Assembly: GCA_008632985.1 (NCBI GenBank)
Contig: QPGO01000027.1
Coordinates: 62,001-126,000 of the forward strand
Direction: 5' to 3'
Source: Psammoneis japonica
Taxonomy: Eukaryota
Length of the DNA stretch: 64,000 nt
Part shown: positions 2,023 to 54,070 of the stretch, piece after piece
How positions within the stretch are numbered: the first letter of the stretch is position 1
Layout of the letters: every line of letters starts with the position of its first letter
The notes under the pieces: model-generated
The model's input: only the letters and a program-made list of their open reading frames with translations
Told to the model about the DNA's origin: nothing
Databases searched by the model: none
Position numbers and translations under genes: made by a program

Positions 2023-2043
2023 CCAACAACAGCAACAGCAACG

Positions 2044-5277: not shown

Positions 5278-5280
<3 letters not shown>

Positions 5281-24519: not shown

Positions 24520-24963
24520 GTTGATGGTGTCTTTTGATTTTTGTGATGTTACAACAGTCGAAGTGAATTGTGAGACAACCTGCACAAGGAAACAACTGGC
24601 AAAGAATTTTGTGAGAGTTTTGCAATCAACGTCACTAGCGATGACGCGTTATTCAACTATACAGATCCTTTTAAATTTCCATGAAAGCGTTGATTAGGGT
24701 GATGACGTTGTCATTTCCGTTGAAGTCTTCATCCAATTAACGCGGCACATTTCTACGACGATCCGTACGTGGAGCTTACGTATGTGCAGCCGCGTGATTC
24801 TTTTTTGCTGACGTGGTTCGGTTCATCGCGCCTACTACAGACAGACCAAAATATTTGGATTCGACCGGCCGAACGAGCGACTGCCAGACACCGAGGAGGA
24901 ACAAACATGCATCAAGCAAAAATTCAACGCTGTGATCGCATCTCTTGCAACTGTCAACTTACG

Positions 24964-27641: not shown

Positions 27642-30550
27642 ATGAAGTTGCTCTTTGCAACATCTCTGTTTCTCACGCGTTCTCTTGCCAGCAGCGATGA
27701 ATGGCACCGTCATTTACGTGTCCGGCACCTCAACGGCGATGACGGCTTTATCATTTATGGCCATGAAAACGGCTGCATTGTGCCCACCTGCCTTGGCAGT
27801 GAGTGTGGGGCCTTCTTTGCTTCGTGCAACTACCCCACTGACTCAAACACCAATACCCATTGGTATCAGGACGATTCCGGGTTGCTCCACTCCGGTTCGG
27901 ATCATAGTAAATGTCTGCAAGCTGCGTGGGGCAATGTAGTCAACGACGGATCGAAAGTGCGCTACGCCTCCTGCGACGCAAACAAGGCAACCCAACAGTT
28001 TGAGCCTGTTACGGCCTCGGGCAACATCAAGCTAAAGATGCGAAGCGACCTTTGCTTAATTGCTCATGGTAATCCACCATCAAGGACGTTTCCCAGATTA
28101 TCCTCAAAGCTTGTGGCGTGGTTGGCAATAGAGCCATCTGGAGGGCTCTGGATTTGCCTACGACACCATCTCCATCGACACAATCGCCGACCACGCCATC
28201 TCCAACGACACCATCACCAACGACACCATCGCCGACCACACCATCTCCAACGACACCGTCACCAACGACGCTATCGCCAACAACGCTATTGCCGACAACG
28301 CTGGCACCAACAACGCCGCCGCAGACAGGTCTCAACGTCGCTGTCTATTACTATCCTTGGTATGGTAATAATTTTCACGGTGGTAAATATCTCCGGTATG
28401 TCACCCTTTCCTCTCCATAGTATGTAACGTGGTTCGACGAAATGCTGTCCTCATTCAACTCTGTTCTCTTGTTTAATAATTGAAATAGACATGATCTTGA
28501 AATGCAACAGAGGCCAGTGCTGGACGAATATGACGACAGCGATCCATCGGTCATCGCCAAGCATCTCGAATGGTCAAAGGACGCAAACATTCGCACGTGG
28601 GTTACTAGTTGGTGGGGTCCAGATTCATACGAAGACAAGACGATTCGCAATGTCATTCTGCCCCACCGCGATATCGGCGACCTTCAGATTGCCGTTCATT
28701 ACGAGTCAACAGGAAGAGGCAGAAACTCCACTGGACAACTGGACGAAGCACTCATCTTGGAGCGTGCTGACTCTGACATTGCGCACCTTTGTCAGCACTA
28801 CTTCTCCCACCCTAATTACATGCGAATTGGCGGTAAGCCCGTTGTTGTCTTCTACTTGAGTCGCTATTATGAGAGTGCACCAGAGCTCCAGCCGGGTCTA
28901 ATGAGAGAAACGTCGAGAGTCATGAAGGAAGCGGCTCGCAATTGTGGAGAAAGTGGGGTGTATCTTATTGGCGATCACGCTTTCAACGACATCCTCTTGC
29001 CTCTTGACTACCTCGATGCAATAACAAACTATGATGTTTATGGAAGTATTCAGGCGTATTCCAACGGGGAGTACTATGCGAAACAAAGTGGCATAGACCA
29101 GTACGTTGCCATGCAAGAAAAATGGCGTACCCACGCACAGCAACAGGGGAAAGGGTTCATTCCTGCTGCCAGTCCAGGCTTTAATGACCGATCCGTACGC
29201 TTGGAGGCTGACCATGTGCCGTTGTCACGCAAGCTGACACCGGATGCAGCGTTCGGTTCGCTCTTTGAAGAGTCTCTGAACAAAGCCGTCGATATGGTGG
29301 ATGCTTCGACCGGAAATATGCTGCTCATCAATTCTTGGAATGAATGGCATGAGGACACTCAGGTAAGTTCTACGTTGCGTCATGTATATCAAAATGCTTG
29401 TGTAATTAAAAATACCAATCGAAACTTTGTTTCTTAATTGCCACCAGATGAACCAGTCATTGGGTTCTCATCCAGCAAGTCTTCTCATCTGACAATGGAT
29501 GTGGAATATGAAGGATATGCCTTTCGTTATCTCGACATGCTACGAAAATTACCATCGGAGTCTCTTCCTCCACCTCCTCCTCCTGAAATTCCTCCTCCTC
29601 CCCCTGAAACCACCCCTCCTTCAGACTGCCCATCAACAATGGCGAACCCCGATGATCTATATCTGCAAGTGAATGACGTGGTTTTGAATAGCTACTGTCG
29701 AGATTTGTATGGGGGGAGCGTGTCTGCAGTGCGAGCTGGTGGATACGACTGGAAATGTCAGAACGCCGACCAATCGATTAGCGACGAGATTTCAATTGCT
29801 GACGTTTGCGCTCGGGAGGTTAGCCCCAACCACGTGGAGGTGCTTCTTGGTGGAACTGAAGATGACTGGGCATGCGTGAATTGGGAAGAGGCTCGTTACA
29901 GTGTCGTGCCTGTTATTGTCGTGGCGAGCGACTTTGTGTCGGATCGGAATGCAATATCTGGGGCCGTTGAATCAGTGACCGCGACGGTGGAGCGAGTTCG
30001 CGAGTGGTACGAAGAAAAGATGACCTCCGGTAAAACGTTCCGTTTAGGTCGTCCCATTCTTCGCCTTTCAAGCCGAACAGGGGAATACTGGAACGAACTT
30101 TCCTGCAAGACTGCCATTCCTCAAGACCGCCCGCAAGAATGCTTGAGCAATGATCCTGAAGCTAAGCGCTACGAATATCTTTACCAAGCATCGGGAGAAG
30201 CACAAGAAACCTCGCTTGGAGTATCACCTCAAGATATTACTGTGCCCATTTTCGTGTTTACGGGACCCGACGCTTCCCCATTCTGGCTTGGCGCGGCTGC
30301 CGCTGGTCAATTCAGTGTGAATCCTCCCAACGTTGCAGTATGCCCAGTGAACAGTGACACTTGTGGATTATACTCGATTGCACACGAAATAGGTCATTCG
30401 TTCAATCTGGCGCACAGCTGTGAGAATCTAGCGGTCCCAGAGCCACAATGCTATAATGGAATCATGGAGAACCCTCCCGATGTCCTCAATGCTGTCCTCT
30501 TTGAGTTTGAGCAGGACATTCTCGACGGTTCTTGTTTCTTCCGTGCCTAG
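27642..30550 (+). CDS. Secreted multidomain protein: ricin-B lectin, Pro/Thr linker, GH99-like glycoside hydrolase, metzincin-like peptidase
   Basis: Signal peptide. Ricin-type C..QxF motifs. (TTPSP)n linker. YYYPWY, WVTSWWG, YFSHPNY.RIGGKPV, PGFND, INSWNEWHEDTQ. HEIGHSFNLAH. Introns ~28396-28489 and 29363-29447, plus indels. Confidence 0.75.
28158..28322 (+). repeat. 15-bp coding tandem repeat encoding TTPSP/TTLSP
   Basis: Units such as acgacaccatctcca and acgacaccatcacca, about 11 copies. Confidence 0.85.
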
Positions 30551-33359
30551 TAGAGGAACAACAATTGCTGTGACCTCTCTACTCGACGGCACCAAGCCAG
30601 GAATGAATGTGTCTACGTATATATTTGCTTATTATATTTAATCTTTATAGTTTACTCGCTTGAGCCAACATGGTGTGGCAGGATTATAGTTGCGTTAATT
30701 ACTCCCGGTAGAGAGACTGAAGCGGTCGACGACTTTGGTGCTGAGAACTTGGAGGAACTTGAACCTGCTCAAGGTGACACATTGCGGGACGGGCGACTTT
30801 ACAGATGCTGGGCCGTCAAACAGTCCTTTTTGAAACAGCGGCAACTTTTTATGTGCACAGTCACACTCACAATTTGTTGGTTGGGGTTTCACCAACAAGA
30901 TGATCATAAACAATCAACCAACACAGTGATTGCTGGTCAATGCTGGTGCCCTTGGGGCAGTCTTTTTTGGCTGGCTGAGGAACAAAACTGTGTGGACAGA
31001 TGTCTCAGACTGGCATCAAGATGCTGTACATGCAATCAAAAACAAGTGCAAGGCTGCTGTTGCCGCCATCACCCCACACCCCCAGGTGCAAGAACACGCT
31101 CTACAGCTGAGCCAAGAACCAACAATGTGTGACACATGTCACCATGACCCACCTCAAGACCCGTTGTTGGGTGTGCAAGTCTCAGAGCCAGCACTTGCAT
31201 CACTCTGGCTGTTGTTGATTTCTTCAACATTGTGGCCACATCTTCCCTTCCATGTGACCACCAGGACAACCTCTGTCACATCCACCCCCACCAAACTGTT
31301 GACCATGTTCTTGTGTGCTCAGATCACAACCACCTCTCTGTTGAACCCCCCCCCCCCCATCTGCCACAATGATGAACCACATGGTCAGGTCCATTGCAGC
31401 CCATCTCTGAATGAAGTCTTTTTTGTGAAAAACTGAGCAAGAGCTTCAACAAGTTGGCTGGGCTCCACCACCATGCAAATGAGACACTTGAAAGAAGTGC
31501 AATGCTTTGGCAAAAAGCAGCAGCAAAATGACTTGTTGCAAGAACAAAAGAGCACACCCTTTCAAAAATCTGGTGGAGAAACTTGCAAATGTGTTTGTTG
31601 CCTTGCCAAGGACCCCAAGTCAACTTGAGATTTTCTGGTCATCAAAAAGTTGATGCACCATGCTGAGGCAGCTGTGCTCAAACTTCTGATGCTGAGCTTT
31701 GGCTTGCAAAGCTGTTGTCAGCAAAAAAGGGCAAAGAGACTTCTGAGGAGCTCTTCTTTGCCATTGCTGTAGTTGGCCCAAGATTAGAAAGCACTGTGGC
31801 TGTCTTCTGCTGTGCCAAAATTGTGAAATCCAAAAATCCCATCCAGGGGCATTGACCAAACATTCTTGGAGCACACAACAAACCTGGCGACATTGCTCTC
31901 ATGGAATTTTGATCCCCCTCAAGTGGCAGCTGGCACACACAGTGCACCTCATCATCACAAATTCACCAGCCATGGCATGGGCATGAAAACAACACAGAAA
32001 GGTGCTCTCTGTCATCAACTTTTTGACAACAAGTTCAAAAATGCACTCTTGCACAAATCACGGTCTTTGGGCTCAAAGTTTGCTGAGTCACCAGCCGTTG
32101 CAGCTGAGCTTTCTCAACAAGCTTTAAAGCTGACCTGCAAAAGCCAAAGCCTCTTCAGCAACCTCAGTGGCTCTCAAATCATGGCCATGATGCTGCCTGT
32201 CATGAACCCACTGCCCACTCCAATTCTTGGACCATTCTTTTAGTCTGAGAGCCACTCCAAGATGATTGACATGACCTTCAATGTCAGTGCAAGCTGCCAT
32301 GCACCACACTTGGCCATCTTGGTGACACCAGCACAGATGATGTTCAAGTGACTGAAGCCCTTCATTCACAACACAGTGCACATGGGATGAACAGCCAAAT
32401 TCATGTTGCATGCCTGCAAAGTTGCTGAGCCCACACAAGGCAGCACAGCTGCCTGCTGTTGTGCAGTTGATGAGTTTGCATCCAACAGAGCAGACCCAAC
32501 AGGCAGAGTGGAAGAAGTTTGTCAAAGATGTGAGAAAAAATCCACAGAAGTCATCATGCATGCATGCAAACCAACCACCAGCACCATGGGCTGATCAACC
32601 CCCCGCACCATTTTGTCTGAAGAACTGCAGCTGTCAGAGACACAGCCCAATGCACTGCCAGCTCTGCTTCCACTTTTGTGTGGCAGAGAACAAATGTTTG
32701 TGCATGCAAGTGTGAGTGCCAGCAGGGCCATGCAAGTGCACATCACATGTGAGCTCCAGTGCCTGCATTTCTGCCACCCGCTGTCTGTGACCCAGCACTC
32801 ATCATGATGTTCTTGGGCATGCTGCTTTTGGCTGTTTTCTGTCTTGTGCCATCACAGTGTGTGTTGCAGCTCTGATGAAGCAAATGCAATCTCTGTTGAT
32901 CTTGCCTTTTGGTGGGTGGAGAGGACAAAGTGTGTGCATCTGGGACACCAATGATCTGGGTCTGACCGTCTGCCACAATCTGGGCATTTCTTGACTTTAA
33001 CACCAGATTTTTGTCAACTTATGAGCCAATTCTCTCCTTGAACACAACATGAGAACTGTGTGAGTTTGTGAGCTTCTAAAACCCAAATTGCTTCTCACTT
33101 TTAAGTGCGATCATTCCTTTCACACAATGCAGACCTGCACCCCAATTGACATTTGGGGTTTCTTGTTCTTTTAACACAAATGTTGCTGCTCATAATCCAC
33201 CCTCCTTTTCTGCCAACTTGTCCCACATTTTGTCTCATTGCTGTGCCATTTTCAAATCCAACTTCCCAATTGCCACACGTTGTTGCATCTGGGCCGCATC
33301 GCAGAATGTTTTTTTTAATTTTCACTTGCCCAGATGTCATTGTTTGTTTCAAATTAAGT

Positions 33360-34493
33360 TCACACACCAGTTTGGTTGGTGGCCATTGCGGCATTTGCTG
33401 CCGCTCCGTTGCCTGCAGCCACCGCCTGCAATGGCAGGTCCTCTCCCATTGGCGCCGCCCATCCTTCCTCTCTCTCCTTTCTTTTTTCCTCTCTTTTGCA
33501 TTTCTTGTTTTCCTCCTGAGACAAGTTTGTCTTCTCTTGCCTTCTCTCCTTGAACCATGCACCGAATCCCTGGTTGTTCTCTCTGTCTTTCACCACCCAC
33601 TGATGCAGATCATTGCACTTCTCGATCCCCTCCTTGCTCCATCCTTGGTTCCTCTTTGCTGATTCCCCCGCCGCCAGCGCTGTGCACTTTGCAGGAGCAG
33701 CATCTTTCACAGTTGGCTTTCTTCTCCTTGCAATGTTTTCTTCCTTTTCCAATTTCTCTGCCGTGTCCTTCACCTTGTTGCAGCAGTTCAAGCACACTGG
33801 CAGAGCAAACGCCTCCGACGAAACCGAAAGCCATTCCTGAAGCATGTCGGTTGTGCTTCCACCAAACTGCACTTGTCCCACCACCGTCGGCACCACAGTT
33901 TCCAAGAACCGTGCACATGTGTCCTTGTCATTTCTTCCCTTTGTCAAGTCTTCGTAAGCCACCAGCGATCCCTCTAAAGCAGCAACTGCACAGACAATGG
34001 CAAAGGAAGAGACACTCATCCTGTTGGACAATCGCCTCCAACACAATCACCGGCACGCACACATCCACTCACCTGTCATTCTCCTCCCAATGTTGTCCTG
34101 CACACTGTTCCTCTTTCGGTTGAGTTTGGTCCTGAACACCTCTTTGCATTCTTCCCAGAACTTCCCCGGTGAAGACGCCATGCTCCTTGGCTCCTGCAGA
34201 ACCAATTTCATGCAATCTCCTCCCACGGCAAGTTCATGATCGAAGATTGTGAACTTGCGACATGGCCAAACACTCTCATTGACAACCTTGGTCAACATCG
34301 ATGCTGTCAATTTCTCGCTCACTGCCGGTGCACGATCCAACACAAGACATCCCTCTGTGGGAGTCACCACCGAACTTGAATCGCCACCTGCATGCTGGAA
34401 TCTGTTCAACTCCCCATGTTCGTTTCTTTGTGCATGCAACAAGGCCGCCACCGCAGGACTCATGGCAACTTCATGTGACACCACACAGATCAA
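33360..34493 (-). pseudogene. Decayed TE-associated hypothetical protein
   Basis: VVPTVVG..SSEAFAL.V(C>Y)LN(CC>YY)..K(C>Y)T..NQGWSKEGIEK(C>Y)NDL(H>Y)..V.KDR resembles an ORF family I associate with diatom DNA transposons. Contains an internal stop. Confidence 0.5.
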
Positions 34494-36044
34494 TCCAACA
34501 ATTGTGTCAGTTTGTCAGCAATTCTTTGTCATGTCCTTTCTCAATCTCACTTGCCGCTGGAAGTTGCACTTCCTCCCTCCGTCGCTCCTGTGAGAACTGC
34601 ATCCTCCATTTTTTTTACCTTCCCAATGGCTTCCTCTTTTTTGGAACTTCCGTCCTTTCCTGTCGCTTTGTGAAAGGCAAGTTGCGAAAAGAATGCACTT
34701 TTGCATGTGATTTTCTCGGTTTTGTTGTTGCTCGCGTGTCCTCTCTCGATTCAAACAGGTCTTTGCATCATTTTTGAGTTCTCATTCCCAACCCCATGTT
34801 TGCACTTCTATCAACATTTCACTGTTTTGAATTGTGTGCCTTTTTCAGCCAATCCAATGCACCAATGAAGATTGCCATGTCATTCAAATCAATGCCAAAC
34901 AACATGTTGTATCTCCTTGTGTCAGTGCATGCATTGCGCTTCCTTGTTGATGCAACATCTGCTTCCTTTGGCACATTGAGTCGTGTCAAACCTCCTGTTT
35001 GTCATCCCTGTCTCAATGGGTCATTCCCTCTGCTTCCCTGACACCACATTTGTCCAGCTGCTCTCTCTGTTGCCCAAATTTTCCAATCCACTTTAATGTC
35101 CACTGAAGTGTGTCATTGTCGCTAAGATGTGGTTGTTGTGAGTCATTCCCGTTGCAGGAACGCGTGTTCCCTCTGTTGCAATCACGTGCCGCCAATTGAT
35201 GATCAAATTGGTCGTTTTGCTGGTGGTGGTGTGGAATCACACGGTGGTGCGGCAAGCTTTGCCTTCTCCGCCAAGGTCATTTGTAACCCCGCTCTCTTTG
35301 CGGCACAAATTCGAAGCCGTTTTAATTTCCTCGACGTTGGTGGTGGTGTTGGCGGTTTTGCGATTGCCTGTCGTCTGCTTGTTCCTGCCTGCAATGCCTG
35401 CAGCATCGAGTTCCACCATCCCCGTCATGATCTTGGCTCTCAGTGGTGTGGTGCCACATGGCACAACAATGCCAGTCGCTTCCCGACCCTGATCAATCAG
35501 GGCTTCCTCTCCGAAGATGATGCTGTTCGTCGGTTGCACCGTCTGAACAACTTAAAGATTTTCTTCAATGGCTGCAATGGGCGAATGCTTTTTTTGACAA
35601 CAACGCGACACAGAACCAACTTGAGGAGATGCTGTCCAACGAGTGTCCTGAAGGTGCTGTTGTCATTTCACTGGACATGATGTTTTGTGTTTGTGCGCAC
35701 AAATGGAGGCATGGAGCATTCTTTGTTCCTGCCCATCCAGACAATCTGTCGTGGGGAGGTGGTGTTGACAGGCACCTGCTTCACAAGTGCACCAAGAAAA
35801 GAGACGATGCCGTGGAGACTGGGCATTCCACCAGGAACGACCTGGGGTCTGACATCAAATGTAAATTCAAGCCTGCCAAAAGTGGGTGACTTTGCAATTT
35901 CACTTTGTTTGTGACGTGACTGTCGTCCATGTGAGCAATGCATTGTCAATTGGCCCTTTACACAAACCCACTTTGCACCTGTGTCAACTTGCTGCTTTGC
36001 CAGTTTTGCATTCCAACACATGCTTGTTCACACGCTTGCTGTGT

Positions 36045-36941
36045 TCACACACTTGCTGTGTCGAAATTGTGGACTGGACATGCCATGTTCCTTCCATCCG
36101 AACTCGTTTTGTTGGGCAAAGCTTGGTGCAACATTCTTGCATCAAAAACAAATGCAGTGCCTGCTTCTCCAACCAGCAATTGTTTTTCCAAACCCAACCC
36201 AACCAATTGTCTTTCGCGCTCCTTCTCATTCAATGTCACCTCACAACTGTCCGGCCACATCTCCACTGCACCATTGTGCTCCGTCATGTCATCAAGGAAC
36301 AGAAACATGGTGAAAATTTTGTTGCCAGGTGACAATTTTGTTTCCACACAATCGCGATGAATTTCCCCCTTTGACCAGAAGTTGGATCTTGAACTTGAAG
36401 CAGGAGCATTTGCTGCTGTGTGCCGGGATGTCTTTCTGCTCAAATCACCCGCCAGGGGAAAGCCAGGAATTAACTCCAACATTTTTTCTGCCAACCCAAT
36501 GCCTTCCGCCTTTTCCTTTTTGTCAATGGTGAACTCACCGACAAAACGGTGTCCTTCCTTTTCTCCCTTCCTGCTTGGTGCCTTGTTTGCAAGCGTTGTC
36601 ATCTTGTTGAGCAGGGGTGGTGGTGTTTTGAATTTTTGCAAGCAGCCTTTTTTTCTTTCCTGGTGCTCTCTTTCTTTGGACCCCACCTTCTTGCTCTTGA
36701 CGACATGAGATTTCATTTTGCCCGGGCATGTCAGTGACTTGCCATGTTTCTGGCATGAAGTTGTCGGCCAACGGGCAAATTTCCGGCATCTGTTCACAGA
36801 ACACTTCCGCGCCATTCTCTGAAGTTGCCTGTTCCACCAAATCAAATGGCACCTGGTCTTTTTCTTTAAGTGGAACAGACCCAATGTAGCGAAAGTCCGC
36901 ACCCATTGCTTTGCAACAAAAACGGCTTTCTTGCCAAACAT
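36045..36941 (-). pseudogene. PhyH-type 2-oxoglutarate/Fe(II) dioxygenase with an N-terminal Cys/His cluster
   Basis: IHRD..FLFLDDMTEHNGAVEMWPDS..GEAGTAFVFDARMLH.A.PN.T..R gives the HxD...H facial triad and distal Arg. Upstream KCSVNRCRKFARWPTTSCQKHG. Confidence 0.7.
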
Positions 36942-37295
36942 GTGTTGCCAACAGCGGTCTGTCTGTTGTGGGCACCACGGGTGTTTTTTTCACAAACAGT
37001 CCCATGTGATGTTTTGACAACGGCAGTCCATCTGTCGGGTGCATCACAGACGTTTTTTTGCCAACAGTTGCATGTGATGTGATCTTCGTTGATCCTGTTT
37101 GCTGAATGATCTCATCAAATTGGTCATCCCAGCTGTCTCAAAAGCACAGAAAACAATTTTGTTGCTCACAATTCTGTTGGTGATGATGTGAGATGTTTTC
37201 ACATCACCACAGCGGCAGACACAAAGCAAAAGCTTCCATCCACCGCACATTCCGCACCACAAACAAACCATTGCTTTTTCAGCACTGCACCCATC

Positions 37296-37410
37296 TGTTG
37301 ACAGAGCAATTTGGTGTCACTTTTCATTGTTAGAACTGTTTGTTAACAAAGTAATTTGGTGTCACTTTTCTGTTGTCAAACATGTTTGTCAACAGAAGAA
37401 TTTGGCATCA
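37296..37410. repeat. ~45-bp tandem repeat, 2.5 copies
   Basis: tgttgacagagcaatttggtgtcacttttc / tgttaacaaagtaatttggtgtcacttttc / tgtcaacagaagaatttggcatca. Confidence 0.8.
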
Positions 37411-38231
37411 GTCATTTGTCAATGCATGTGTGTGGCAATGGACACCTTTGGCACCACTTTTTTGCTTGTGCACTCAACACTGGCCTGTGCAGTGTCATGA
37501 CACAAAGTGCATCTCCCACAGCAAAACACATTCTCCCGAATCTTGTCCAAGTCGCTGATCAACTCATGTTGAGCAACAAACAGATGTTGTTTGGGTGGCT
37601 CCATTTCTTGTCTTCCGCAGCCTTGTCATTCCCTTTGCAGAACAACAACCTCAAAATGATCCCACCCCAAAGAATCACACCAAATCCCTTGCCTGTTAGG
37701 CCACGTTGCCGAAATGGAACCAACAAATCTCTTTTCCGTCCGATGCATCGCACTTCTCTCCCGATGACATTCCACCCGACTCAACCTGCAGTGTTGACCA
37801 ACAATCCATCTGGGCGTTGTCTCCCGCCGGTGCATCTGGCCCCGTTTGGCACAGAAAACAGCCTTGACACCAAATTGAGGCTCTGTCATTCTCCCACACG
37901 TTGGGCAAACAAACGCGGTCATGTTTGTTTGTCACTCAAAAAAAGTGGTTTGACAGATCACTTGATCCGCGGCATTGTGCTGATGATGTTTGATGTGAAA
38001 ATCTTTGTTCGAGAGCAGTGGGAAGAGCAATGCATGCAACCCAAACCACCTTGGTGAATTTGCAAAATGGCCGGTGCACCCAAGCTGCATTAGATTGGCT
38101 TTGAAGGAGGCCGCCCTTCTAGAGCTGGCTCAACGAAAGAAAAAAAAGGCATGCAAAAAAATCATTGATGCTCGCCACTTCCAAAACAAAAAATGCAAAA
38201 GATCTGCAGCGGCACAGGTGGGGATTGCATC

Positions 38232-38657
38232 TTGCGTGCTGCTTCCACTTCCCATCTGTTTCTTGCCTGAAAAATTGTTGTTGATGTTTCCTAGAATGAC
38301 ACCATTGCCAAAGCTCCAACGATTGCAACTGGTGTCGATTCCTGTGTGGAAGGTGCCAAAGACGACGACAATGACACCATGGGCGGAGACGGATGTCATG
38401 GATGACGAACAACAAATTTGGACTGTTGCAGACAGTGAAGAATGTTCATTGGTAAGGGATTTCATCTGTCGTGCTGCTTCCCTTTCCCATCGGTTCCCTG
38501 CCTGACAAAGTGCATGTTGATGTGTCCCAGAATGACAGCAATGATCAAAGTCAAACGATTGCCACCGGTGTCGACTCCATTGAGGTGGCCACCCATGACA
38601 ACAACAACGACTCTACATGGGCGGAGACAGATGACATGGTTGATGAACATCCAATTG
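38232..38657 (+). repeat. Diverged direct repeat, period ~235 bp
   Basis: cgtgctgcttcc..ttcccatc..tgcctga..gttgatgt..agaatgaca..ggtgtcga..catgggcggagac.gatg occurs at ~38232-38420 and ~38467-38657. Confidence 0.8.
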
Positions 38658-39300
38658 ACACTGGCAGATTGTTGGTGATTGGCATGGAAGTTGGTGGTGA
38701 TTTAAATGGAAGTGACAAAGATGCACGCGACAGCATTCGAACTCAACGTCTGGTGGATCTTGGATGTGACGTTTGCACAATTGACAAGAGGATGCGCCAT
38801 GCTTCCTCGCCAAAGCACATGGAGTGTGATGTTCTAAGTTTGCACAGATCAGCAGAATGGAAGAGATTGTCCAAAGAGACAAAGTTCGATCACATTTGCT
38901 TTGACTGCGTGTGTTCAAACCCGGCCTGTCTCTTGGCTTCAGTTCCAAAGGGACCTTTTTTCCAAGATGCACTCAGGGAGCTGCTGCGGTCGCTGATGAC
39001 AATGGGACATTCTTCCTGCCTGCATGCAATCTTGTGTTTTCCGAGTTTTGGATCGAATGGCAGAAACAACATGTGTCGGAAGAGTCCCCAATGCGCTTCT
39101 TGCATGAAGAGCAAGTGTGCGACGAGGTCCCCATCCTTCGAGACGAGGCACAAGCAGACATCTCTGCCTGCGGAAAGTTTTGTACAAGGGAAGAATGCAT
39201 TGAGGATTGTGAGTCAAACACTTTTCTCAAAATTTTGGAGCACACAGTCATTCGGCGAATGAGGGATAAAGCTGGCTCAGTCTCAGCCTTTTTTTTTTGA
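38640..39300 (+). pseudogene. Decayed ORF with a Rossmann/SAM-methyltransferase-like strand pattern
   Basis: RLLVIGM..RD..R..L..LG(C>Y)DV(C>Y)TIDK..H..CD..KFD(H>Y)I(C>Y)FD(C>Y)..FF..L..GTFFLP, with a frameshift near 38980. Confidence 0.4.
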
Positions 39301-41496
39301 TGTCGTTGCACGATGTTTCCGGGAAACGCTTTCAACACACTGGTGCCAACGGCTGTTGTCATCCTCTGGATCCAGACCCAATGCAGCTGCAGTGAGCAAC
39401 TCCACGAAAGCTTGGTCAAAAAATTGGCAGACATGAAGGGGGTCATCAGAACAGTGGGAGGGCACATGGCAGTTGTGAGACAACCTCTCGGTCTTGCTTC
39501 GGCCCATGACTCTTCCACAAATACGTTCTTGATTGAGGATGTCCCCCAACAGGGAGTTGCAATGCATCACAGCTCTGACATGGTGGTGTTGAGTGCCTGT
39601 CATTGCACGAACAATGGGTGGATTCACCTGGCAATGAAGCAGACCATGGAGGACCTCCTTGAGAATGCGGTGACAGTTGGCAACAACAAGGCACCCAAGC
39701 TTGTCTTTCTTGTCTTTCCTGTCCAAATTGGGCATGAATCCGAGTGGATGCCAACAACAGCAGTCGCGGTGTGCGTCCTCTTGAATCATGGCAAGTGAGT
39801 GCATTGCAGGCTCCATCCCGTGAGGATTGACTGCATTGACTCCGGTCTTGTCCAAGCAATTGACAAGGTGAACGTGAAAATCAGATGCCATTTCCTTTGC
39901 ATTGGTGCAACGTTGTTGCCACTCGCCGTCACCCATGTCTTGACTTTGAGTGGACAATCGCCAGTCCCCAGGATGATCCGGGAACGACATCTCAAAACCG
40001 TCAGCCGGGCTAGCGCTGGTTTCCAAATCGCCATCTGTGGGGGGTGGCACACAAGGTGACCAGACATCATTTGGATTAACCTGCAACTTGGAAAGATCAC
40101 GGAACACTGGCTCGGTGAAGAGATCCTGCAAGGTCTCGGTGAAACTGTAAACCGGGAAAGGTGGGGAGCAATGACATTTGGGTCCATCCTTCTGTTGCTG
40201 TGTTGGGTTGTCACATTCTAGCATCACAGTGGCAGTGCGGGGGAGAGGAACATTGGGAAATAACCCCAGGAGTTGCTTCATTGCCACGGCGGCAGTGATG
40301 GGTGGCTTGGACAAATCCAGTCTTTTTTCTGCATGCTCTTAATGCAAAATTCTCATCACTTTGTCGACAAAGTCAATTGCAACACCTGACCGACAACACA
40401 AATGCAGCAAACGCACCATGGGTGCAATGCTGGGTGAGCAGACTGGAGGCACATCGAAATCCTCATCGGGTGCGACATCACGCGGCGGGCCAAGAGGGTT
40501 GTGTTGATCGAGGGAGGAAACAGGATCTTCTGTCGGACCGGAAATTGAGGGGGGGCCACAACTGCCATCGCGACGGTCGGCTCCAATGAACTCGGGAACA
40601 TCCACAGGACTGTCCTCTCCAAGGGCGGACACACCATCATCTGCAAACAAAACAAATTGGCGGACATTTTGGGAGGCTGCACTGGTGGCAGCAAAGTTGG
40701 CAGCTGAGCGCAATCGACCAGAGCGTCTGACGGAGGGTGGGCGCAGTCCACTTCCGGCAGAGGGAGGACAAGCTGGAGAAGAATTGTCCATTGGTGTGGG
40801 AGGAGATGGAGCTGGATTCCAAAGGACTTTGGGGAGGGGAGGAGGGGGTTTGTCGTCGGAGAAACCAAACCCAGCAGGATCATCATGGTTGTCCAGTGAT
40901 TCATCATGGTCGTCATCTGGAGGGGGAAGTGCACGGGCGGCAGTGGAAGATGTGGCATGTGGGCGAAGGGACATTTCCTCTTTTTCACGGCAGGGCAAGC
41001 ACTTCTGTAGATGAAGGGCGATGTTGGAAAAGGGAACATGGCAATGGGGACATTTGGGTTTGTTGGTGTTGGATCCAAGGGAGCCGACGGAGGCAGAATC
41101 CAGAGGATGAGAGGAAAGAGATGTTCTGCCGGATGAAGAAGACAATTGGGTTGCACGGCGCAACTGTGTCAATGGGGGATGGAGACCAGATGCTGCAGTG
41201 CAGTGCCAAGATGGGTGATGCTGCACGTTGTTTTCAGAGTCAAATCCACGTTGTCCGCAATGAGGACAACTAAAAGACTTGGTGGAAATGGCGGAATGGA
41301 GGCAGTTAGTTGCGATGTGCCTGCTGAGGCCACATTCGGAAAAGAAACCGGTTCGTTTGCACCATGGACAAACAAGACCATCAGACGCATGGCCGATGTG
41401 CACAGACGAAGGAGTTGAGAAGAGAATCGAAAGCAAACAGTGGGTGCAGCAACAATCACTTGGGGACATGGTGAGGGTGGAAACACAGAGGTGCAA
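39283..41496 (-). pseudogene. Plavaka-like DNA transposase, decayed and apparently C-terminally truncated
   Basis: N-terminal C2H2 fingers (CPWC..H, CPHC..H). Core reads (C>Y)LDKTG..GMEP..SL..W(H>R)PLGFMPNL..N(C>Y)HRIL..L..LLGD....RICG..R..C, matching the Plavaka transposase pattern. Confidence 0.7.
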
Positions 41497-44372
41497 CGTG
41501 CGGATGGACGGGGAGGAAGGATGGAATGGGCAGGGAGAGAAAATTGAGAAAACAATTGGAGTCTAGATTGACGGACATGGGCAGCGATTTTGATCCAGAA
41601 AGTTGATTGACACACAATCCAGAAATTAAAGTGGAACCAAATGTGCACATGAGGCTTGTCGGATGGGGGGGCAAATGGTCAAATTGAGGAACACAGATGT
41701 TTGTTGTTGAACATTTCAGAAAATCTGGCTTGTCAAATCAGCACGATCTTGGATCAAAGGGAGAAAATGTTGGGTTTCATTTCAAGAAATCTTGACGGCC
41801 AGTGCGACACCTGGATCATTGGTGTCCCAGATGTGGAGGTCACTCCTGTGTGATGCGCTGGAGTTGTTTGTGTGAAAACAAGCCTGGCGGGACAACCCCA
41901 GCTCATGTTGTCACCATCATTGCAACATCTGAGTTGCAGCTGAAGACAAGTGTCACAAAGAACAATCCCACGACACTCCATGACATTGCCTCACACAACT
42001 GCAGACCATCTCTGCAGATTGACAGCAGACAGACAGACCATCAGAAAACAATGGCTGGTGGCTGATCATTCTCGATCAAAAACAGCAAATCTGCTGGAGT
42101 GTCAACAAAACTGGAAACACTGCAAATGGACCACAACAGATGCCACAAGAATTGACCACAAAATTTTCATCCGACAGAAAAATGTCTCTGTGATCTCTTG
42201 GAGGGAGTTTGCACATCACAAACACCTTTCAACCACACGAGCTGCTTTCCATCCCAGCTCGGTGATGCCACGTGTAAAAAACAACCCCCCGTTTTTAACC
42301 AAATGCCCACTTTGATCGACTGACAGCATGCAGATACGAAGCTCAGCACACTTTTGGGGGCTGGAATGGGGGTGAACGTTGGTCACCAACCAATCACTGA
42401 ACATTGACCCTCGCACTTGCCCCCATGCAACAAAGGTGCTCCACGAAAAGTTGGTTCCATTTTCAAACACCCGACACCATGAACAACACATGCTTGCTAC
42501 ATTCTTGCAAGACATCGGTTTGAAGAGTGTGACACTGACAATGCTCATGTCTTGTGCATTTTGTGGCTCTAGCGGGGGTCAAATCTAGCCAATTCTTCCA
42601 AAAACTTTGAGTTGAGTGGGTCACATGGGATTCAAGACACGTGACTTGCTGCACAGTTGTTGAGCCTTTCTCCTTTCTTGACTCCAAGATTGGATGACAA
42701 CATCAACACAAGACCTGTTTCATGGCTGTGTTCTGTTCTCTGATCCATGGCCAGCCTCCTGACAACTGCATTTGACCTCTTTCATGCTGCAAACTGGCAA
42801 AGCAATCCTCGAATGCTCATTTCAAGTCACACTTTTCTGTTTTGAGATTTGACATTTGCAACTTTGCAACAAATCTAGAGTGGGCACGAGCCAGGAAGAA
42901 GCTCTGTTCACTGCTGTTTGTCATTCTGTAGAATGGCAGCACATCAGAACAATGTTGTCAATGTTGTTTGACTGCTTTTTTCTTGAACCATGCACCAACT
43001 TCATTCTGCGCTCTCGCTGCCATCCGCCCGACTCTCCTCCATCCAAGAATGCTTGGCTGAATGTGTTGCAGTTGCTTTGCCAAAGTCTTGCATGTGTTCG
43101 TCTGTTCAATGCCATTGCTCAAATGGGACAATTGACACGACAATGACATTGGATTCGTTCATGTGCTGCTCATGCCAGGAAAGACAAAACAAGAATTGGC
43201 TGTGGCGGCAAGAAAGTTGAGTGAGACAACAAGTGGTGAGCCTTGGACATGTTGACAACACAATTTTGATTTTAAATTTACTTGCCTTTTTATGAACTCG
43301 GACTTCAACACATGGGATTCCGAAAATCCGGCAAATGGCGAGTTGATGCATTGTCTGCATGCAACATGGTGCAACGACAAAGTGAAACAGCATGTTTCAA
43401 TGTTTCTCGCCAAAATGAACATCTCTGAATGAACGGTTGCAGCTGCACATTGACGAGGGTCTGACAGAGCTTCTGTTGCAATGGTCCAAAAAACGACGAA
43501 TGTTCAGACACCTCATCCACCGCGTCAATGTCATCATCGGCTCTGGCGGGTTTTTGACAATTTCTCCGTGTTGTCACCACAAGATGGTCTGCACACTCAT
43601 CTGGAGCATGCTGGCCATGCCAGTTTGAAGCCATTTAAGGCTTGGGTCTCGCAGCTGCAAATTTGCAAAAAATGATTGTTTGTCAGCCCCGATGGCTGCA
43701 CCCAGAAGGCAACAACACAAGTTGAAACAGAGACAAAAGGACAAACAAAGTCTTTCATCTGTTCATCAGATTTCCTTGAGAGAATGAGGGGATCTTCACC
43801 TCTCACTCTCTCCCCAAGATCTTCTGTGTCTGGTTGGAGCATGCTGGAGAGAAAGAAGAGCGGCCGAGAGAGAGGGTGCAGGAGATGTGCTCTCATTTTC
43901 AGGCAGCCTCGAGCAAGCCCAACAAGCAGTGGAAAGAGTTGCAGTTCCTTCTCTGGACTGTCATCTTGCAGATGCAGCTCTCGGATCGCATTCATCACAG
44001 ACATCCAACGGGGCCTGCTGTTGGCTTCAAGCCGCCGGGCTGGCTGCTGGAGTGGCCAGCTGAACGCTTGTCTGCGCCTTGCGCCGGATGGTTCCCTCTC
44101 AGAACGAGAACAACCGCGGCACGAATCATATCAAGAATGCGGCATCAACTCGCGCAACAACGTGGGTGATGCCGGATGCCGATCAAAACGAACAACAGAG
44201 AACAGAATGAGACTACATCATGCATCAGTGCATGGATAGTCTCTAGAGGTGTATTGTGCATCACACGCGACGGTTCCGTGCTGTGTAATATTATTGTGCC
44301 GTGCAAGAAGACAAGAAGCAACCACTGGGTAGGGTTTGCACATTAATCGATACGAAAAGCAAGAACAACGCA

Positions 44373-44837
44373 ATGAGCAGCAGCAGCAGTGACTCTCCAC
44401 AGGAACAGGCTCAAGACGAGAGCAGGCGAGATTCGGCCGCGTCAAAAGCCGATAGTGAGGTGAGCTTTGGAAATGTTCGAGTCATTGAACACAGCATTCA
44501 ACTGGGAGACAATCCAGCCGTCACAGACGGCCTTCCTGTAATGATGGGAGGAAAACGGGGCTCTACAACGGTCTCGGTCGACGAATTTGAGGAAGAAGTA
44601 AATGAGCGCGGTGGGCATCATGCCGCCACCAAAATGAGCGCTGGGGAACGTTTGACGATTATTAGCCACAGTCACAAGCACTCGGGCGGCAGCATCAATG
44701 CGGCTTTCAAAGAAGTGCAGGAAATCAAACATTCCCGGAACGAAAGCAATCATGCAGAGGAAGAAGAAAAGAAGAAGCACAAGAAGCACTTCTCTCTTCC
44801 GTGGCACAAAAAGAAAGGAGCAAAGCATCACAAGTGA
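44373..44837 (+). CDS. Small diatom-type hypothetical protein
   Basis: VSFGNVRVIEHSIQLGDNPAVTDGLPV motif (VxF...LGDNP family) and a basic tail. Confidence 0.7.
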   Translation: MSSSSSDSPQEQAQDESRRDSAASKADSEVSFGNVRVIEHSIQLGDNPAVTDGLPVMMGGKRGSTTVSVDEFEEEVNERGGHHAATKMSAGERLTIISHSHKHSGGSINAAFKEVQEIKHSRNESNHAEEEEKKKHKKHFSLPWHKKKGAKHHK

Positions 44838-45388
44838 TTCTGCATAAATGGTTTTGTAGTTTGGTACTTAATTCTTGTTTCTTTCAGAATTTCAGACGTG
44901 TGCTTGCTTTGTTGTGACGGAAAGGCAGGAATTTCAAGCAAGCCCGAAGCAAGGTGTGTGACGGTAAGGATAAATAGTGTACTGTGTACTGTAGCCTATC
45001 CTTTGTGCTAGGCGCAAGAACTGTTGGCAGCGTATTGTCTTGCTGACAATATATGTATCCAAGATTGCGGCAAAGCATGCTTCCTTTTCTGAAGAAAGGA
45101 CTTTTCGATGGGAGCGTACGCCGAACCTGTTTCCTGCTGGCAATGCAACCTCATGCAAAGTTGAAATGAGTTCATTCCTCCACGAAGGGTCTCTATATTG
45201 GCTGAAGTCACACTATGAACCGAGATTTACCTTTCTAGTAGTACTGTACAATCGAATTTTCACCATCCAAGCTCGTCATTGACGAAAGACTTCCAGCTTG
45301 TTCCTAGCAGAAGAACCTGAAACAATTATCGTTGGATTCATTTTTTATCAAGAAAGCACGGCTGCACTAACTTATAAAGAAGAAACTA

Positions 45389-46177
45389 CTATTGCTTACT
45401 CTTCCATGGCAACACCTTCCCTGTTATCACTAACATCGACGTCTTCATGGAAACCATCACGAAGCCAACGCCTAGCCAGGTTTCTCTTCTCAGGTGCACC
45501 GCACTTTTCTCCATCTTTGAACCAAAGCTTAAAGTAGTAGATGATCCAATCCCACCATTTATCAGGGCATTGCTCAAGGTTACGTCCGGTACCAACCGGA
45601 CGATGAGGGTATGTCGTCGCGAAGGGACCTGCAAGCTGGACAACTCCGCTATTTACAATCGTATGGTGATTGATTTTCCCTCCCGGAAAGTAACAAGACT
45701 TCCAGCCTTGACAGGAACTTTCTCCTGTTTCACACCATCAAAGAAAAAGGATGCTTTAGGATTCGTGTTCAAGAAGATGAAGGCAACATCTTCACTACCC
45801 TCAAGACCACCATCTTCCGTTAGCTCCACATCAACGTGCGGCATGGTGGACGATGAGATGGTTTTCGTCAAAATGTACCGGGCATTGTGTTCATCGCCTA
45901 GTGCGGCCATGAAAAGCTTGATTCAGCTTGTTGACGTGCTGCTTCGATAGGAAAGATGCGCCGTAGTGAGAGCCGTAAAGCTCGTGCTCCCATGAAGCCG
46001 TTTTCGGCGATGATTTCTGATTCTCGTAGATGGTCTCAATGTCATGTTGAGAGAAGAAGTTCTCGTAAACCTTGACCCCGCCAGACGTGTCATCAGAAGA
46101 GCACGTAGGCTCGACGGCAGCTACGCTCCAAGGGCAAGAGCGGCCAGCAGTACAATACCGGTGAGAATAAACCTCAT
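45389..46177 (-). CDS. Secreted protein with a 2OG-Fe(II)-oxygenase-like HxD...H pattern (frameshifted; 3' end uncertain)
   Basis: Signal peptide MRFILTGIVLLAALA. PHVD..VAFIFLNTNP.A.F..VPVKAGSLVTF, then HTIVNSGVVQLAGPF in the next frame. Confidence 0.5.
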
Positions 46178-47113: not shown

Positions 47114-49044
47114 ATGAAGAAATTCTTGCTTGTATTTCTCCTGCTTACATCATGCTCTTGCTCTCTAGCCCGCAAGAATGAGCATGCAAATTTACGTGTG
47201 AGGAATCTAGGCAGCGAGAACCACCACAGCTTTACTATTTATGGCATTGACAATGGTTGTATCGTTCCCACCTGCCTATACAACGCGGTATCCTTCGCCT
47301 CGTGTGATTACCTCGTTGACTCGAATCTCATTTCACATTGGTGGCAGGACAGTGCGGGGTTGATCCATTCCAGCTTGTTTCCGGAAATGTGCCTGCAGGC
47401 CGCCCACGGAAACGTCCTTGTGGACGGATCAAACATGCGTTTCTACCCCTGCAACGGAACCAAGGTCAATCAACAGTTCGAGCCTGTTTCTGCCTCTGGT
47501 ACGATCAAGCTGAAATCACGGGATGACCTTTGCGTCGTCGCCCACGGTTCTCCGCCTGTAAAGGATGTGTCTGAGATTATATTCAAGAAATGCGACATTG
47601 TGGCAACAGAGCTATCTGGCGCACACCGGCGTTGTCCTCCTCACCGCCTCCACCCTCTCCTCCTCCTCCAGACTTAGAAGATGGAAGCTTTTCATTTATG
47701 GCATTGACAACGGTTGCGTTGTTCCTACTTGCTTTTACAACGCTGTTTCCTTCGCCTCGTGTGACTACCCGGTCGACTCGAATCTTATTTCACATTGGCG
47801 GCAAGACAGCACCGGGTTGATCCATTCAGCTTGTTTCCAGAAATGTGCCTGCAGGCCGCCCATGGAAACGTACTTGTGGACGGATCAAACATGCGTTTCT
47901 ACCCATGCGACGAGCACAAGGTCAGTCAACAGTTTGAGCCAGTTTCGTCCTCTGGTACAATCAAGCTGAAATCGCGGAGTGATCTTTGTGTCGTCGCCCA
48001 CGGTTCTCCGCCTGTGAAGGATGTGTCCGAGATTATTTTCAAGAAGTGTAATGTCGTTGGCAATAGAGCTGTATGGAGCGCACCTTCTGTATCTCTGCCG
48101 CCGCCACCACCACCTCCTCCCGACTGCCCGTCAACAATGGCGAATCCAAATGATCTGTACCAGCCTTTGAATGACGTCGTTTTGAATCGCTACTGTCGAG
48201 AATTGTATGGGGAAAGCGTCTCTGCAGTGCGGGCTGGTGGCTATAACTGGAGATGTCAGAATAATGACCAGTCGATTAGCGACGAGGTTTCCATCGCTGA
48301 CGTTTGCGCTCGGCAGTTTAACCACAATTATGTGGAGGTACTTCTTGGTGGAACTGAAGATGACTGGGCATGCGTGAATTGGGAAGAGCTCGTTACAGTG
48401 TCGTGCCTGTTATTGTCGTGGCAAGCGACTTTGTGTCGGATCGGAATGCAATGCTGGGGCCGTTGAATCAGTGACCGCGACGATCGAGCGAGTTCGCGAG
48501 TGGTACGAAACAAGATGTCGTCTGGGAATACGTTCCGTCTAGCTCGTCCTATCCTTCGCCTTTCAAGCCGAACAGGGGAATACTGGAACGAACTTTCCTG
48601 CAAGACTGCCAGTCCTCAAGACCGTCCTGAAGAATGCTTGAGCAGTGACCCAAAAGCTAAGCGCTATGAATATCTCTACCATGCGACGGGGGAGGCGCAA
48701 CTAACGTCACTTGGTGTATCACCTCAAGATATAACCGTGCCCATCTTTGTCTTCACGGGACCCGACGCTTCCCCATTCTGGCTTGGCGCAGCTGCAGCTG
48801 GCCAGTTCAGTGTGAATCCTCCCAACGTTGCAGTATGCCCAGTGAACAGTGACACTTGTGGATTATACTCGATTGCTCATGAAATAGGTCATTCGTTCAA
48901 TCTGAGCACAGTTGTGAGAATCCAGCGGTCCCAGAGCCACAATGCTATAATGGAATCATGGAGAACCCTCCCGATGTCCTCAACGCTGTCCTCTTTGAGT
49001 TTGAGCAAGACATTCTCAACGGTTCTTGTTTCTTCCGTGCCTAG
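47114..49044 (+). CDS. Secreted 2x ricin-B lectin + metzincin-like peptidase (paralog of 27642-30550, lacking GH99; frameshifted)
   Basis: Signal peptide. Two near-identical ricin units (~47230-47625 and ~47688-48085). Peptidase region closely matches 29620-30550, including HEIGHSFNL. Confidence 0.7.
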
Positions 49045-49619
49045 AGGAACAGCAATTGCTGTGACCTCTCTACCCGACGGCACCAAGCCAGGAATGATTG
49101 TGTTTACGTTACTACACAAATTCCTTCTTTATATTGCTTACTTAGATATAACTTGAACTTTTTAGTTTACACGCTTGAACCGACATGGTGTGGCAGGATA
49201 TAGTCGCTATAACTTCTACCGGTAGGGGAGACTGAAGCGGACGACGGCTTTGGTACTGAGAACTTTGGAGGAACTTGAACTTTTTCAAGGCGACACATGG
49301 CGGGTTGACGGGCGACGTTACAGATGCAGGGGCAATGGTGCTTTTTTATCGGTTACCTGATTGACGAAAACGACAAGATAAATCAGAGAGTTGAATTGGT
49401 TTCCTGGATCGGAAGAGATCGTTTTAAGTCTTGATATATGATAATTCCGTGACTTCTTGAAAAGCAGTGTGCATCGTGGTCAGGGATAGCTTAAGATGTG
49501 TGGCATCCTCATCGTCTGAAGCGTAAGATCTCGGTGCATTTTTTGCATATTACTCTAGTAGGTACATACATTGAAATCAAAATTTAAGCATCTATAAAGA
49601 AACCCCTCACGATCGGGTT

Positions 49620-53785: not shown

Positions 53786-54070
53786 CGGGAGGGTTATCGG
53801 GATCGAAGTTATGATAAGAGTCAGCACCAAGAAGGTGAGTGGAGGATGCCCCGCTGGATGAGGGTGGGCGTGAAGAACACATCATGCGCGTGCTTCACGC
53901 GTGTTCTTCTGTCATGGTGTATGTTCGTCTGCGACACGTCGTTGAAGTGCGTGCTGTCTGCGCCGCAACTGCATTCCGTGAGATCATCACGCACGCAAGA
54001 GCGAGCATGCCGTTGTCGCTGTTGAAGCCGATATCATTTTCTTGACAGCGCGAACTTTGTTATTGCCACC

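Follow-up and report, generated by a model that had tools for sequence, protein, structure and literature searches.

The closest described counterpart of the locus reported here is found in the chlorarachniophyte Bigelowiella natans (Rhizaria), in which integrated DNA of nucleocytoplasmic large DNA viruses (NCLDV) and virophages undergoes TpA>TpG/CpA hypermutation (Mettrop et al., bioRxiv 10.64898/2026.01.13.699255, April 2026). As set out in the main text of that preprint, 231 of 302 de novo mutations in mutation-accumulation lines fell within two integrated viral regions, and 230 of these 231 were A>G or T>C changes, all of them at TpA (10.64898/2026.01.13.699255). Hypermutation of this type is further defined by a rate, measured as such, that is orders of magnitude above that of the genome and episodic between lines. 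The same source counts 124 TpA-poor, CpA- and TpG-rich clusters genome-wide, enriched in DDE and reverse transcriptase (RT) domains, and proposes an ADAT2-like deaminase as a candidate enzyme (10.64898/2026.01.13.699255). Here, we describe this spectrum in a diatom (Stramenopiles): a 64,000-nucleotide (nt) stretch of Psammoneis japonica (assembly GCA_008632985.1, contig QPGO01000027.1, positions 62,001 to 126,000; hereafter, the window) contains four domains that have almost no TA, the largest of which (domain 2) is centered on the relic of a DNA transposon.

Common to the two cases are the restriction of change to TpA, the TpG and CpA products, and the confinement to foreign or mobile DNA. 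They differ in degree and in detail: the observed/expected ratio (o/e) of TA is 0.01 to 0.08 in the domains of the window versus the 0.45 that the preprint gives for the NCLDV region of B. natans, the target here is a DNA transposon, CpG is depleted along with TA, and the changed sites follow an extended T-A-Y motif (Y, pyrimidine) that spares TTAA. The main text of the preprint makes no mention of flanking context, TTAA, or CpG, although contexts may be given in its supplements. The rate was measured directly in B. natans, whereas the process in the window is known from sequence alone. An earlier interpretation made from the letters of the window (hereafter, the sequence-only reading) held that no described system behaves in this way, a statement that is now out of date, as Mettrop et al. 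measured this very spectrum. The window represents a second lineage with this very recently described process, in a near-saturated state; new with it are a motif, sharp limits, a DNA transposon as the target, and the co-occurrence of CpG decay. In the literature searched, outside of which lie most subscription journals, we found no report of TpA hypermutation in diatoms or stramenopiles.

To our knowledge, no cellular system for the targeted mutation of A:T pairs in invading DNA was known before 2026, and other mutational systems resemble the window only in part. Fungal repeat-induced point mutation (RIP) likewise hypermutates mobile or repeated DNA through transitions, destroys the genes of the element, keeps within fairly sharp limits, and prefers a dinucleotide. 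However, RIP converts CpA to TpA, which creates TA and lowers GC content, whereas in the window, TA is removed and GC content is unchanged. As to a RIP-type dependence on duplication, a now-single-copy part of domain 2 (30830-32936) is equally mutated, although it may consist of old repeats whose other copies have been lost. The decay of 5-methylcytosine (5mC) at CpG is slower and less context-dependent; it accounts for the CpG>TpG/CpA half of the changes but cannot remove TA.

Among deaminases, TadA, ADAT2-ADAT3, and the derived adenine base editors convert A to inosine (read as G) with U or T directly 5′ of the target, much as T precedes the changed A in the window, where C or T is preferred after it. 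The core consensus of bacterial TadA is U-A-C-G, with U-A-M-G described in Streptococcus pyogenes (PMC11472039). In the window, where the preceding T follows by definition from TpA, the base after the changed A (position +1) is preferentially a pyrimidine (C or T), with G weak and A near zero, and the resemblance to TadA is one of context only: the natural substrates of TadA and ADAT are RNA loops, whereas here, chromosomal DNA is changed on both strands and T at +1 is as good as C. The editing of retroelements and viruses by APOBEC and ADAR in animals is likewise a deaminase-type hypermutation against mobile or viral nucleic acids, but its substrates are single-stranded cDNA (C>U) or double-stranded RNA and its tracts are strand-biased, in contrast to the strand-symmetric, unclustered changes observed here in a DNA transposon and in noncoding relics.

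Composition separates the four domains from the rest of the window. In 500-bp windows, TA o/e is 0.00 to 0.2 at positions 1-6000, 31000-44000, 52500-53800, and 62500-64000 and mostly 0.4 to 0.8 elsewhere, and a two-state hidden Markov model (HMM) run on the TA positions of the 64-kb window sets the limits of the domains (Table 1). The four sharply bounded, TA-poor, TG/CA-rich domains of the sequence-only reading, and the ordinary TA content of the genes between them, are recovered by both methods, with TA o/e of 0.54 to 0.60 and CG o/e of 0.95 to 1.05 in the three inter-domain segments. The longest run without TA measures 1896 bp, whereas placing the 1716 TA sites uniformly, 2000 times over, never gave a run above 587 bp, and 41 of the 128 500-bp windows contain no more than four TA, compared with at most three such windows in any uniform placement. 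GC content is equal inside and outside the domains. The accompanying loss of CpG was understated in the earlier reading: CpG is depleted in all four domains and, in three of them, nearly as strongly as TA. Per kb, the domains contain 4.0 TA and 19.2 CG, compared with 39.4 and 57.0 outside them, a combined loss of 73.2; CA/TG stands at 215.2 inside versus 146.9 outside, which is 68.3 more. Read most simply, this balance means that both TA and CG have become TG or CA. A self-BLAST of the window detected no sequence similarity among the four domains. We regard it as highly probable that the domains are relics of mobile or foreign DNA that have been driven nearly to saturation by the joint action of TpA>TpG/CpA and CpG>TpG/CpA changes.

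The polarity of change can be read from the transposase relic within domain 2 (Table 1). A search of 1.84 billion representative proteins returned 291 homologues at an E value of ≤1e-3, the best with 40% identity (E 3.9e-76). PF18759 (Plavaka), the sole transposase family found among the 55 homologues scanned, was matched by 29 of them (3 of 15 plus 26 of 40), 22 at or above the Pfam cut-off, although the open reading frame (ORF) of the relic itself matched no Pfam family at an E value of ≤0.01. No relatives of this ORF were found in JGI metagenome contigs, and a word-indexed protein search with the C terminus of the transposase gave no match at longer lengths; a query built from the family alignment gave three. 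Tyrosine is encoded by TAY codons only, and the relic contains 0.1% Tyr, 5.3% Cys, and 5.8% His, versus medians of 2.8, 2.2, and 3.25% among the 150 listed homologues; host ORFs in the window contain 2.5 to 4.8% Tyr.

In an alignment with 45 homologues (from which matches shorter than 400 residues or with less than 1.5% Tyr were excluded), none of the five Tyr-consensus columns defined by a strict threshold is kept: the relic reads Cys at three, His at one, and Gln at one. Other consensus columns are largely maintained (Trp, 3/3; Gly, 10/12; Asp, 10/14; Cys, 4/5; His, 2/2). With a looser threshold, ten Tyr columns read Cys at four, His at one, Tyr at one, and other residues at four. The presence of Cys and His at the Tyr columns of the homologues indicates that TA was lost in the relic rather than never present, and the His residues at 3 of 13 Arg-consensus columns are a mark of CpG decay. 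The earlier observation that conserved Tyr residues read as Cys or His in decayed transposon genes is confirmed for this transposase, a single gene with no Pfam transposon domain.

TG and CA are nearly equal in number in the domains compared (Table 1), and their order along the sequence displays no runs of the same product (runs-test z from -1.6 to +0.8), from which it follows that sites were struck singly and on either strand. AA/TT is not depleted, at 165.8 per kb in the domains versus 161.3 per kb outside. The 91 residual TAs are strongly biased in context (chi-square, 278). When NTAN classes are strand-collapsed and their density in the domains is expressed relative to that in host DNA, TTAA stands at 0.88 and provides 33 of the 91 residual TAs, followed by CTAG (0.32), CTAA (0.23), GTAA (0.11), CTAC (0.07), ATAA (0.05), GTAC (0.03), ATAC (0.02), ATAG (0.01), and ATAT (0). 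TTAA survives in the old and in the young parts alike (0.80 and 0.95, respectively). Survival is consistent with a per-strand rule, roughly additive, under which the rate depends on a single flanking base.

Which flanking base this is can be read from the products: the excess of NTGY (3.7 to 8.9 per kb) is larger than that of NTGR (1.0 to 4.1 per kb). Among models fitted to the 16 product classes, with CpG decay taken as context-neutral, T-A-Y with the A changed performs best (r, 0.67; root mean square error [RMSE], 1.8), compared with r values of 0.21 for no context and -0.37 for R-T-A with the A changed. In line with TAT>TGT and TAC>TGC, AT drops in the domains from 65.7 to 54.9 per kb, and GC climbs from 57.4 to 68.3 per kb. 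A T-A-Y motif means that TTAA escapes on both strands. A changed A in 5′-T-A-Y-3′ is equivalent to a changed T in 5′-R-T-A-3′ (R, purine), and the sequence cannot separate the two.

CpG loss is slower than TA loss and follows another context rule. By context, CpG survival ranges from 0.20 to 0.52 (highest in CCG), versus 0 to 0.88 for TA, and in the young transposon, CpG is still present at 0.30 to 0.82 of host density, depending on context, whereas TA outside TTAA is nearly gone. Diatom methylation occurs mainly at CpG, according to the portion of the literature consulted (PMC5124317), and ordinary deamination of 5mC therefore suffices for the CpG half of the signature. For the TpA half, the balance of losses and gains, the replacement of Tyr by Cys and His, the TpA polymorphism described below, and the parity of TG and CA together bear out what had been proposed from the letters, namely, a strand-symmetric A:T>G:C process at TpA on repeated or mobile DNA, the reverse of RIP.

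The TA-free sequence is reproduced in public sequencing data, which comprise three runs, available as k-mer contigs, that share a single sample and study. The reproduction comes from run X1; run X2 has no coverage over 31001-42400 and run X3 none at all, which counts as evidence neither way. Over the stretch compared (28001-46000), contigs of run X1 with a word depth of about 55 to 62 match the window closely, with six differences in 1546 bp (30577-32124), two in 760 bp (32205-32962), one over 41808-42361, and eight over 43549-45874. The depth and accuracy of these contigs argue against a base-calling artefact; such a check against sequencing data, proposed along with the sequence-only reading, returned TA-free sequence, albeit from same-sample runs that are not independent.

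The differences themselves carry the signature. Over 30577-32124, the window has TA at five of the six places, where the run has CA or TG (binomial P = 1.7e-7, with 3.1% of positions lying within a TA). Half of the six residual TAs of 30830-32124 differ between the window and X1 (30907, 31028, and 31770; TA>CA or TA>TG). In the repeat part, 13 of the 20 listed differences swap among TA, CG, TG, and CA, including three adjacent CA<->TG doubles that point to independent strikes on either strand of one ancestral dinucleotide; the variable places listed are a sample, 40 of 1366. All variable places in X1 amount to 1070 transitions (A>G, 222; T>C, 277; C>T, 278; G>A, 293) and 285 transversions. In domain 4, the two copies of a tandem duplicate (62413-62561 and 62566-62714; 98% identical) have three differences, all transitions, of which two are TA<->CA/TG. 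Residual TAs thus appear to be still mutating. Just beyond the left edge of domain 2, by 90 to 200 bp, the TATAT at 30618-30624 reads TACAC in the X1 contig (differences at 30620 and 30622), and the process may reach slightly past the edge in another haplotype or strain.

Apart from these two positions, the process keeps for the most part to the inserted DNA, as indicated by a flanking paralogue and by the positions of host ORFs. The gene segment at 29609-30812 shares 87% identity with a paralogue at 48106-49331, and the paralogy stops about 20 bp before domain 2. In comparison with the copy at 48106-49331, the flanking segment has eight TA>TG/CA changes versus four in reverse, no excess, and no spill-over of mutation into it was detected. 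At domains 1 and 4, host ORFs start no farther than about 100 bp from the edge.

In domain 2, relics of mobile DNA are nested: an older part now present in single copy, a multicopy transposon that is young, and further repeat pieces (Table 1). Single-copy X1 contigs end at 32962 and restart at 41808, coinciding with the positions of the terminal inverted repeats (TIRs). Between these points, the summed depth of X1 contigs is 1387 to 5066, versus about 55 to 126 in the flanks, summed contig depth not being equivalent to copy number. Together, the TIRs, the breaks of the single-copy contigs, and the high depth identify the core of domain 2 as the relic of an 8.9-kb multicopy DNA transposon. To its right, a contig of depth 61.6 covers 41808-42361, summed depth is again high (2444 to 3010) over 42401-43600, and a single-copy contig extends from 43549 on. 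Contig pieces matching the 18-kb stretch 28001-46000 at ≥82% identity number 4932. The dinucleotide TG flanks both TIRs; no longer target site duplication is visible, although hypermutation may have blurred one. The view that the domains are transposon DNA is established for domain 2, the other three having no demonstrated transposon.

Like the elements of the Plavaka group (related to CACTA/EnSpm), the element in the window has TIRs, many copies, and an ORF for a 2-oxoglutarate- and Fe(II)-dependent [2OG-Fe(II)] oxygenase; it differs in that its own transposase ORF no longer scores against PF18759 and in that its oxygenase is PhyH-like rather than TET/JBP-like. Fungal Plavaka/KDZ elements are reportedly associated with TET/JBP dioxygenases, as Iyer et al. 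are said to have noted in 2014. The oxygenase ORF is possibly cargo of the transposon. Its nearest Atlas clusters are also PhyH (score of 0.89, a lead only), and a search of PDB sequences gave no match below an E value of 0.1. Also in the interior of the transposon are a 45-bp tandem repeat (2.4 copies at 37296-37405) and a diverged tandem duplicate of about 200 bp (38221-38656; 78 to 80% identity), whose 40 differences are mostly transversions, unlike the general signature, and uninformative about it.

Table 1. TA-depleted domains of the 64-kb window and the features identified within domain 2
Feature	Position	Strand	Description
Domain 1	1-6241		TA 13 (o/e 0.03), CG 45 (0.12), TG 711 / CA 750; leaves window at left end
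Domain 2	30830-44120 (HMM 30710-44213)		TA 70 (o/e 0.08), CG 371 (0.47), TG 1390 / CA 1404
Older single-copy relic	30830-32936		CpG o/e 0.04-0.10, TA o/e 0.03-0.07; X1 contigs of depth 57-58
Multicopy DNA transposon relic, about 8.9 kb	32937-41833		Bounded by TIRs; transposase with Plavaka-family homologues
Left TIR arm	32937-32961	+	25 nt, 92% complementary to right arm
PhyH-like 2OG-Fe(II) oxygenase ORF within transposon	36045-36989	-	PF05721, E 2e-7; itself TA-free/hypermutated
Transposase relic	39286-41562	-	759 codons, one internal stop, 1 Tyr
Right TIR arm	41809-41833	-	25 nt, 92% complementary to left arm
Right-hand rest of domain 2	41834-44120		Single-copy piece (41808-42361), then multicopy repeat (about 42400-43600)
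Domain 3	52230-53794		TA 1 (o/e 0.01), CG 20 (0.21); TG/CA not compared
Domain 4	62396-64000		TA 9 (o/e 0.07), CG 14 (0.18); TG/CA not compared; leaves window at right end

Two processes probably account for these domains. One is a targeted, DNA-level hypermutation of the B. natans kind, TpA>TpG/CpA (A:T>G:C), that strikes independently on either strand, largely stops at the edge of the element and spares the neighboring genes, outpaces CpG decay, and is apparently active; the other is CpG>TpG/CpA, as expected when methylated CpG decays in diatom transposons. The data show the composition, the direction of change, what the element is, the motif, and the edges; an enzyme brought to marked chromatin would carry out the TpA change as a host defense. 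Tentatively, we favor a DNA adenine deaminase (ADAT2/TadA-like or other), recruited to such chromatin, for this role. More speculative again is the broader proposal that diatoms and chlorarachniophytes may share, by descent or convergence, a chromatin-targeted DNA adenine-editing defense that reads 5′-T-A-Y-3′, a context resembling the anticodon loop recognized by tRNA adenosine deaminases, that is unable to act on TTAA, and that, combined with 5mC decay, erases all self-complementary pyrimidine-purine (YpR) steps of mobile DNA.

The change could instead begin on the other base of the pair. A TET/JBP-like or other enzyme that modifies the T of 5′-R-T-A-3′, for example, to 5-hydroxymethyluracil (5hmU) or 5-formyluracil (5fU), appears unlikely to us, as does the sequel in which the modified T mispairs with G or is repaired in an error-prone manner to give T>C on either strand. 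An A>G change on one strand is a T>C change on the other, so that R-T-A with a changed T describes the fitted motif just as well, and the transposon does carry an oxygenase ORF; this ORF, however, is of the PhyH rather than the TET/JBP type and has itself been hypermutated. 5-Formyluracil favors A:T>G:C, and base J occupies the T at TpA steps in the telomere repeats of trypanosomes; we know of no modified thymine in diatoms. That a single deaminase of dual specificity acts on A at TpA and on (methyl)C at CpG, erasing both YpR steps, is decidedly unlikely. TA and CG are lost jointly in all four domains and both end as TG/CA, and the ADAT2 enzymes of amphioxus and Trypanosoma act on A and C, as cited by Mettrop et al.; yet the two losses differ in kinetics and in context rule, as described above, deamination of 5mC at methylated diatom CpGs is sufficient, and the main text of the B. 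natans preprint leaves CpG unmentioned. Polymerase eta (Pol eta) has WA as its motif, and error-prone repair synthesis of this type, one of the candidate mechanisms of the sequence-only reading, shares with ADAR editing of transposon RNA followed by reverse transcription a preference for A>G after T or U; for ADAR, the preferred U upstream of the edited A is noted in the discussion of Mettrop et al. Both are barely credible here: the former is disfavored by the undepleted AA/TT, and the latter by the nature of the element, a TIR-bounded DNA transposon without an RNA intermediate, by the near equality of TG and CA without coding-strand bias, and by the equal effect on noncoding, single-copy relics.

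Other explanations dispense with a process acting copy by copy, or with mutation altogether. Mutation of a master copy on one occasion, followed by amplification of the TA-free element, would call for no per-copy defense, and the window copy and many contigs are indeed 90 to 99% alike (of the contig pieces, 920 match at ≥99%, 1291 at 95 to 99%, 1707 at 90 to 95%, and 1014 at <90%). We find this account quite improbable, since a transposase with one Tyr in 759 codons, an internal stop, and Cys or His at Tyr columns is unlikely to drive amplification, the CA<->TG doubles between copies imply independent strikes, single-copy relics and three unrelated domains are in the same state, and residual TAs appear to be changing still. 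It is very improbable that the composition is native or selected, the elements avoiding TA (e.g., because of a TA-reading nuclease) or deriving from a TA-poor donor. The avoidance of short words is well known in phages, but here the element's own conserved Tyr codons are destroyed, the state is common to four sequence-unrelated domains, TTAA persists at normal density, which TA avoidance does not predict, and the loss of TA and CG is balanced by the gain of TG/CA. Barely credible, too, is an artefact in which modified bases at TA and CG were miscalled as TG or CA: the confirming runs share a sample and a study, and their platform and library type are not on record, but k-mer contigs of word depth about 55 to 62 give the same sequence, the signature recurs at the protein level in contigs of other projects, and the B. 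natans events were, according to the preprint, called from Illumina reads. GC-biased gene conversion was rejected because GC content is unchanged and the changes are dinucleotide-specific, and UV photoproducts at TA were rejected because they would not stay limited to the domains.

Several points weigh against the reading of the domains as mobile or foreign DNA under targeted TpA hypermutation. Only domain 2 of the four has an identified origin, and Pfam, run on 18 ORFs and on six read-through frames across the four domains, matched PhyH alone and gave no family of viral or transposon origin. Both the silencing of this DNA and its targeting as a defense are what we infer from the patterns above, and part of the TA loss may have occurred once in a master copy rather than after each insertion. 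The survival figures and the T-A-Y fit take host gene DNA, rather than intact copies, as the proxy for ancestral composition; the fit is moderate and depends on the context-neutral treatment of CpG decay, and CTAA has been lost beyond the prediction of the additive model. Tyr-consensus columns are few at either threshold. The sequencing runs may be the assembly's own source, which makes for a good but not an independent check, TA was assumed, without outgroup polarization, to be the ancestral state of the polymorphisms, and two of the five polymorphic TAs (30620 and 30622) lie about 90 to 200 bp outside the domain, such that the edge is not absolute.

The same signature can be recognized in proteins from other sources. 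Four of the 150 listed homologues of the transposase, all from ENA and JGI metagenome contigs, contain less than 1% Tyr (P0188, P0252, P0244, and P0240; 0 to 0.6%): P0252 has no Tyr in 382 residues, and P0188, an open frame of 1290 residues with about one Tyr, has 0.1%. Relative to L001, with which it is 68% identical, P0252 has His in place of four and Cys in place of one of the five Tyr residues, and about a dozen Arg residues are replaced by Cys, His, Gln, or Trp (both counts made by eye from the alignment). These replacements of Tyr and Arg indicate that the double TA/CpG signature is present in other environmental eukaryotes. L001 and L002, both retrieved with P0252 as the query, are only mildly TA-poor (o/e, 0.38 and 0.34); the comparison between them displays ordinary divergence (59 transversions and 44 transitions) and is uninformative with respect to the motif.

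Finding this spectrum in a diatom places it in a different and ecologically dominant lineage and reveals that the process can run essentially to completion, with transposon genes losing all Tyr codons and all TAA and TAG stops. Lacking these stops, TA-free relics keep very long ORFs, which gene callers take for genes, and the relics escape Pfam; the public collections searched already list two predicted proteins of the transposase family that are almost devoid of Tyr. As such, TA o/e offers a cheap genome-wide marker of old mobile DNA in such organisms. The flanking-base rule (T-A-Y struck, TTAA immune) is testable in vitro on candidate deaminases or thymine-modifying enzymes and, if there is indeed a shared adenine-editing defense, the mirror image of RIP, would serve as a fingerprint for the biochemical identification of the enzyme. 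Base-editing research would also take an interest in a natural enzyme able to edit A within double-stranded chromosomal DNA.

The genes between the domains are diatom genes, not those of Bigelowiella. An ORF encoding a RecQ-GRF helicase (60142-62289) has 129 homologues, and diatoms (Attheya, Epithemia, Thalassiosira, Cylindrotheca, Nitzschia, and Skeletonema) supply nearly all of the named ones. This RecQ helicase, with two N-terminal GRF zinc fingers, is split over two ORFs on the minus strand (58455-59471 and 60142-62289), one containing DEAD and GRF and the other RecQ_Zn_bind and RQC; the two are probably one gene with an intron or gap between them, full-length diatom relatives being about 1150 to 1240 residues long. 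Domain 4 begins about 100 bp past the helicase ORF, and its tandem duplicate is 149 bp in length. Domain 3 has a purine-rich plus strand (GC skew and AT skew both about +0.3), whose frames encode low-complexity sequence rich in Lys, Glu, and Arg. Segmental gene duplications of 67 to 87% identity link 15976-16704 with 23921-24653 (inverted), 47228-47663 with 47686-48120, and 27742-28146 with 47226-48081; together with the pair flanking domain 2 (29609-30812 and 48106-49331), the duplications in the window include a gene for a reprolysin-like metallopeptidase.

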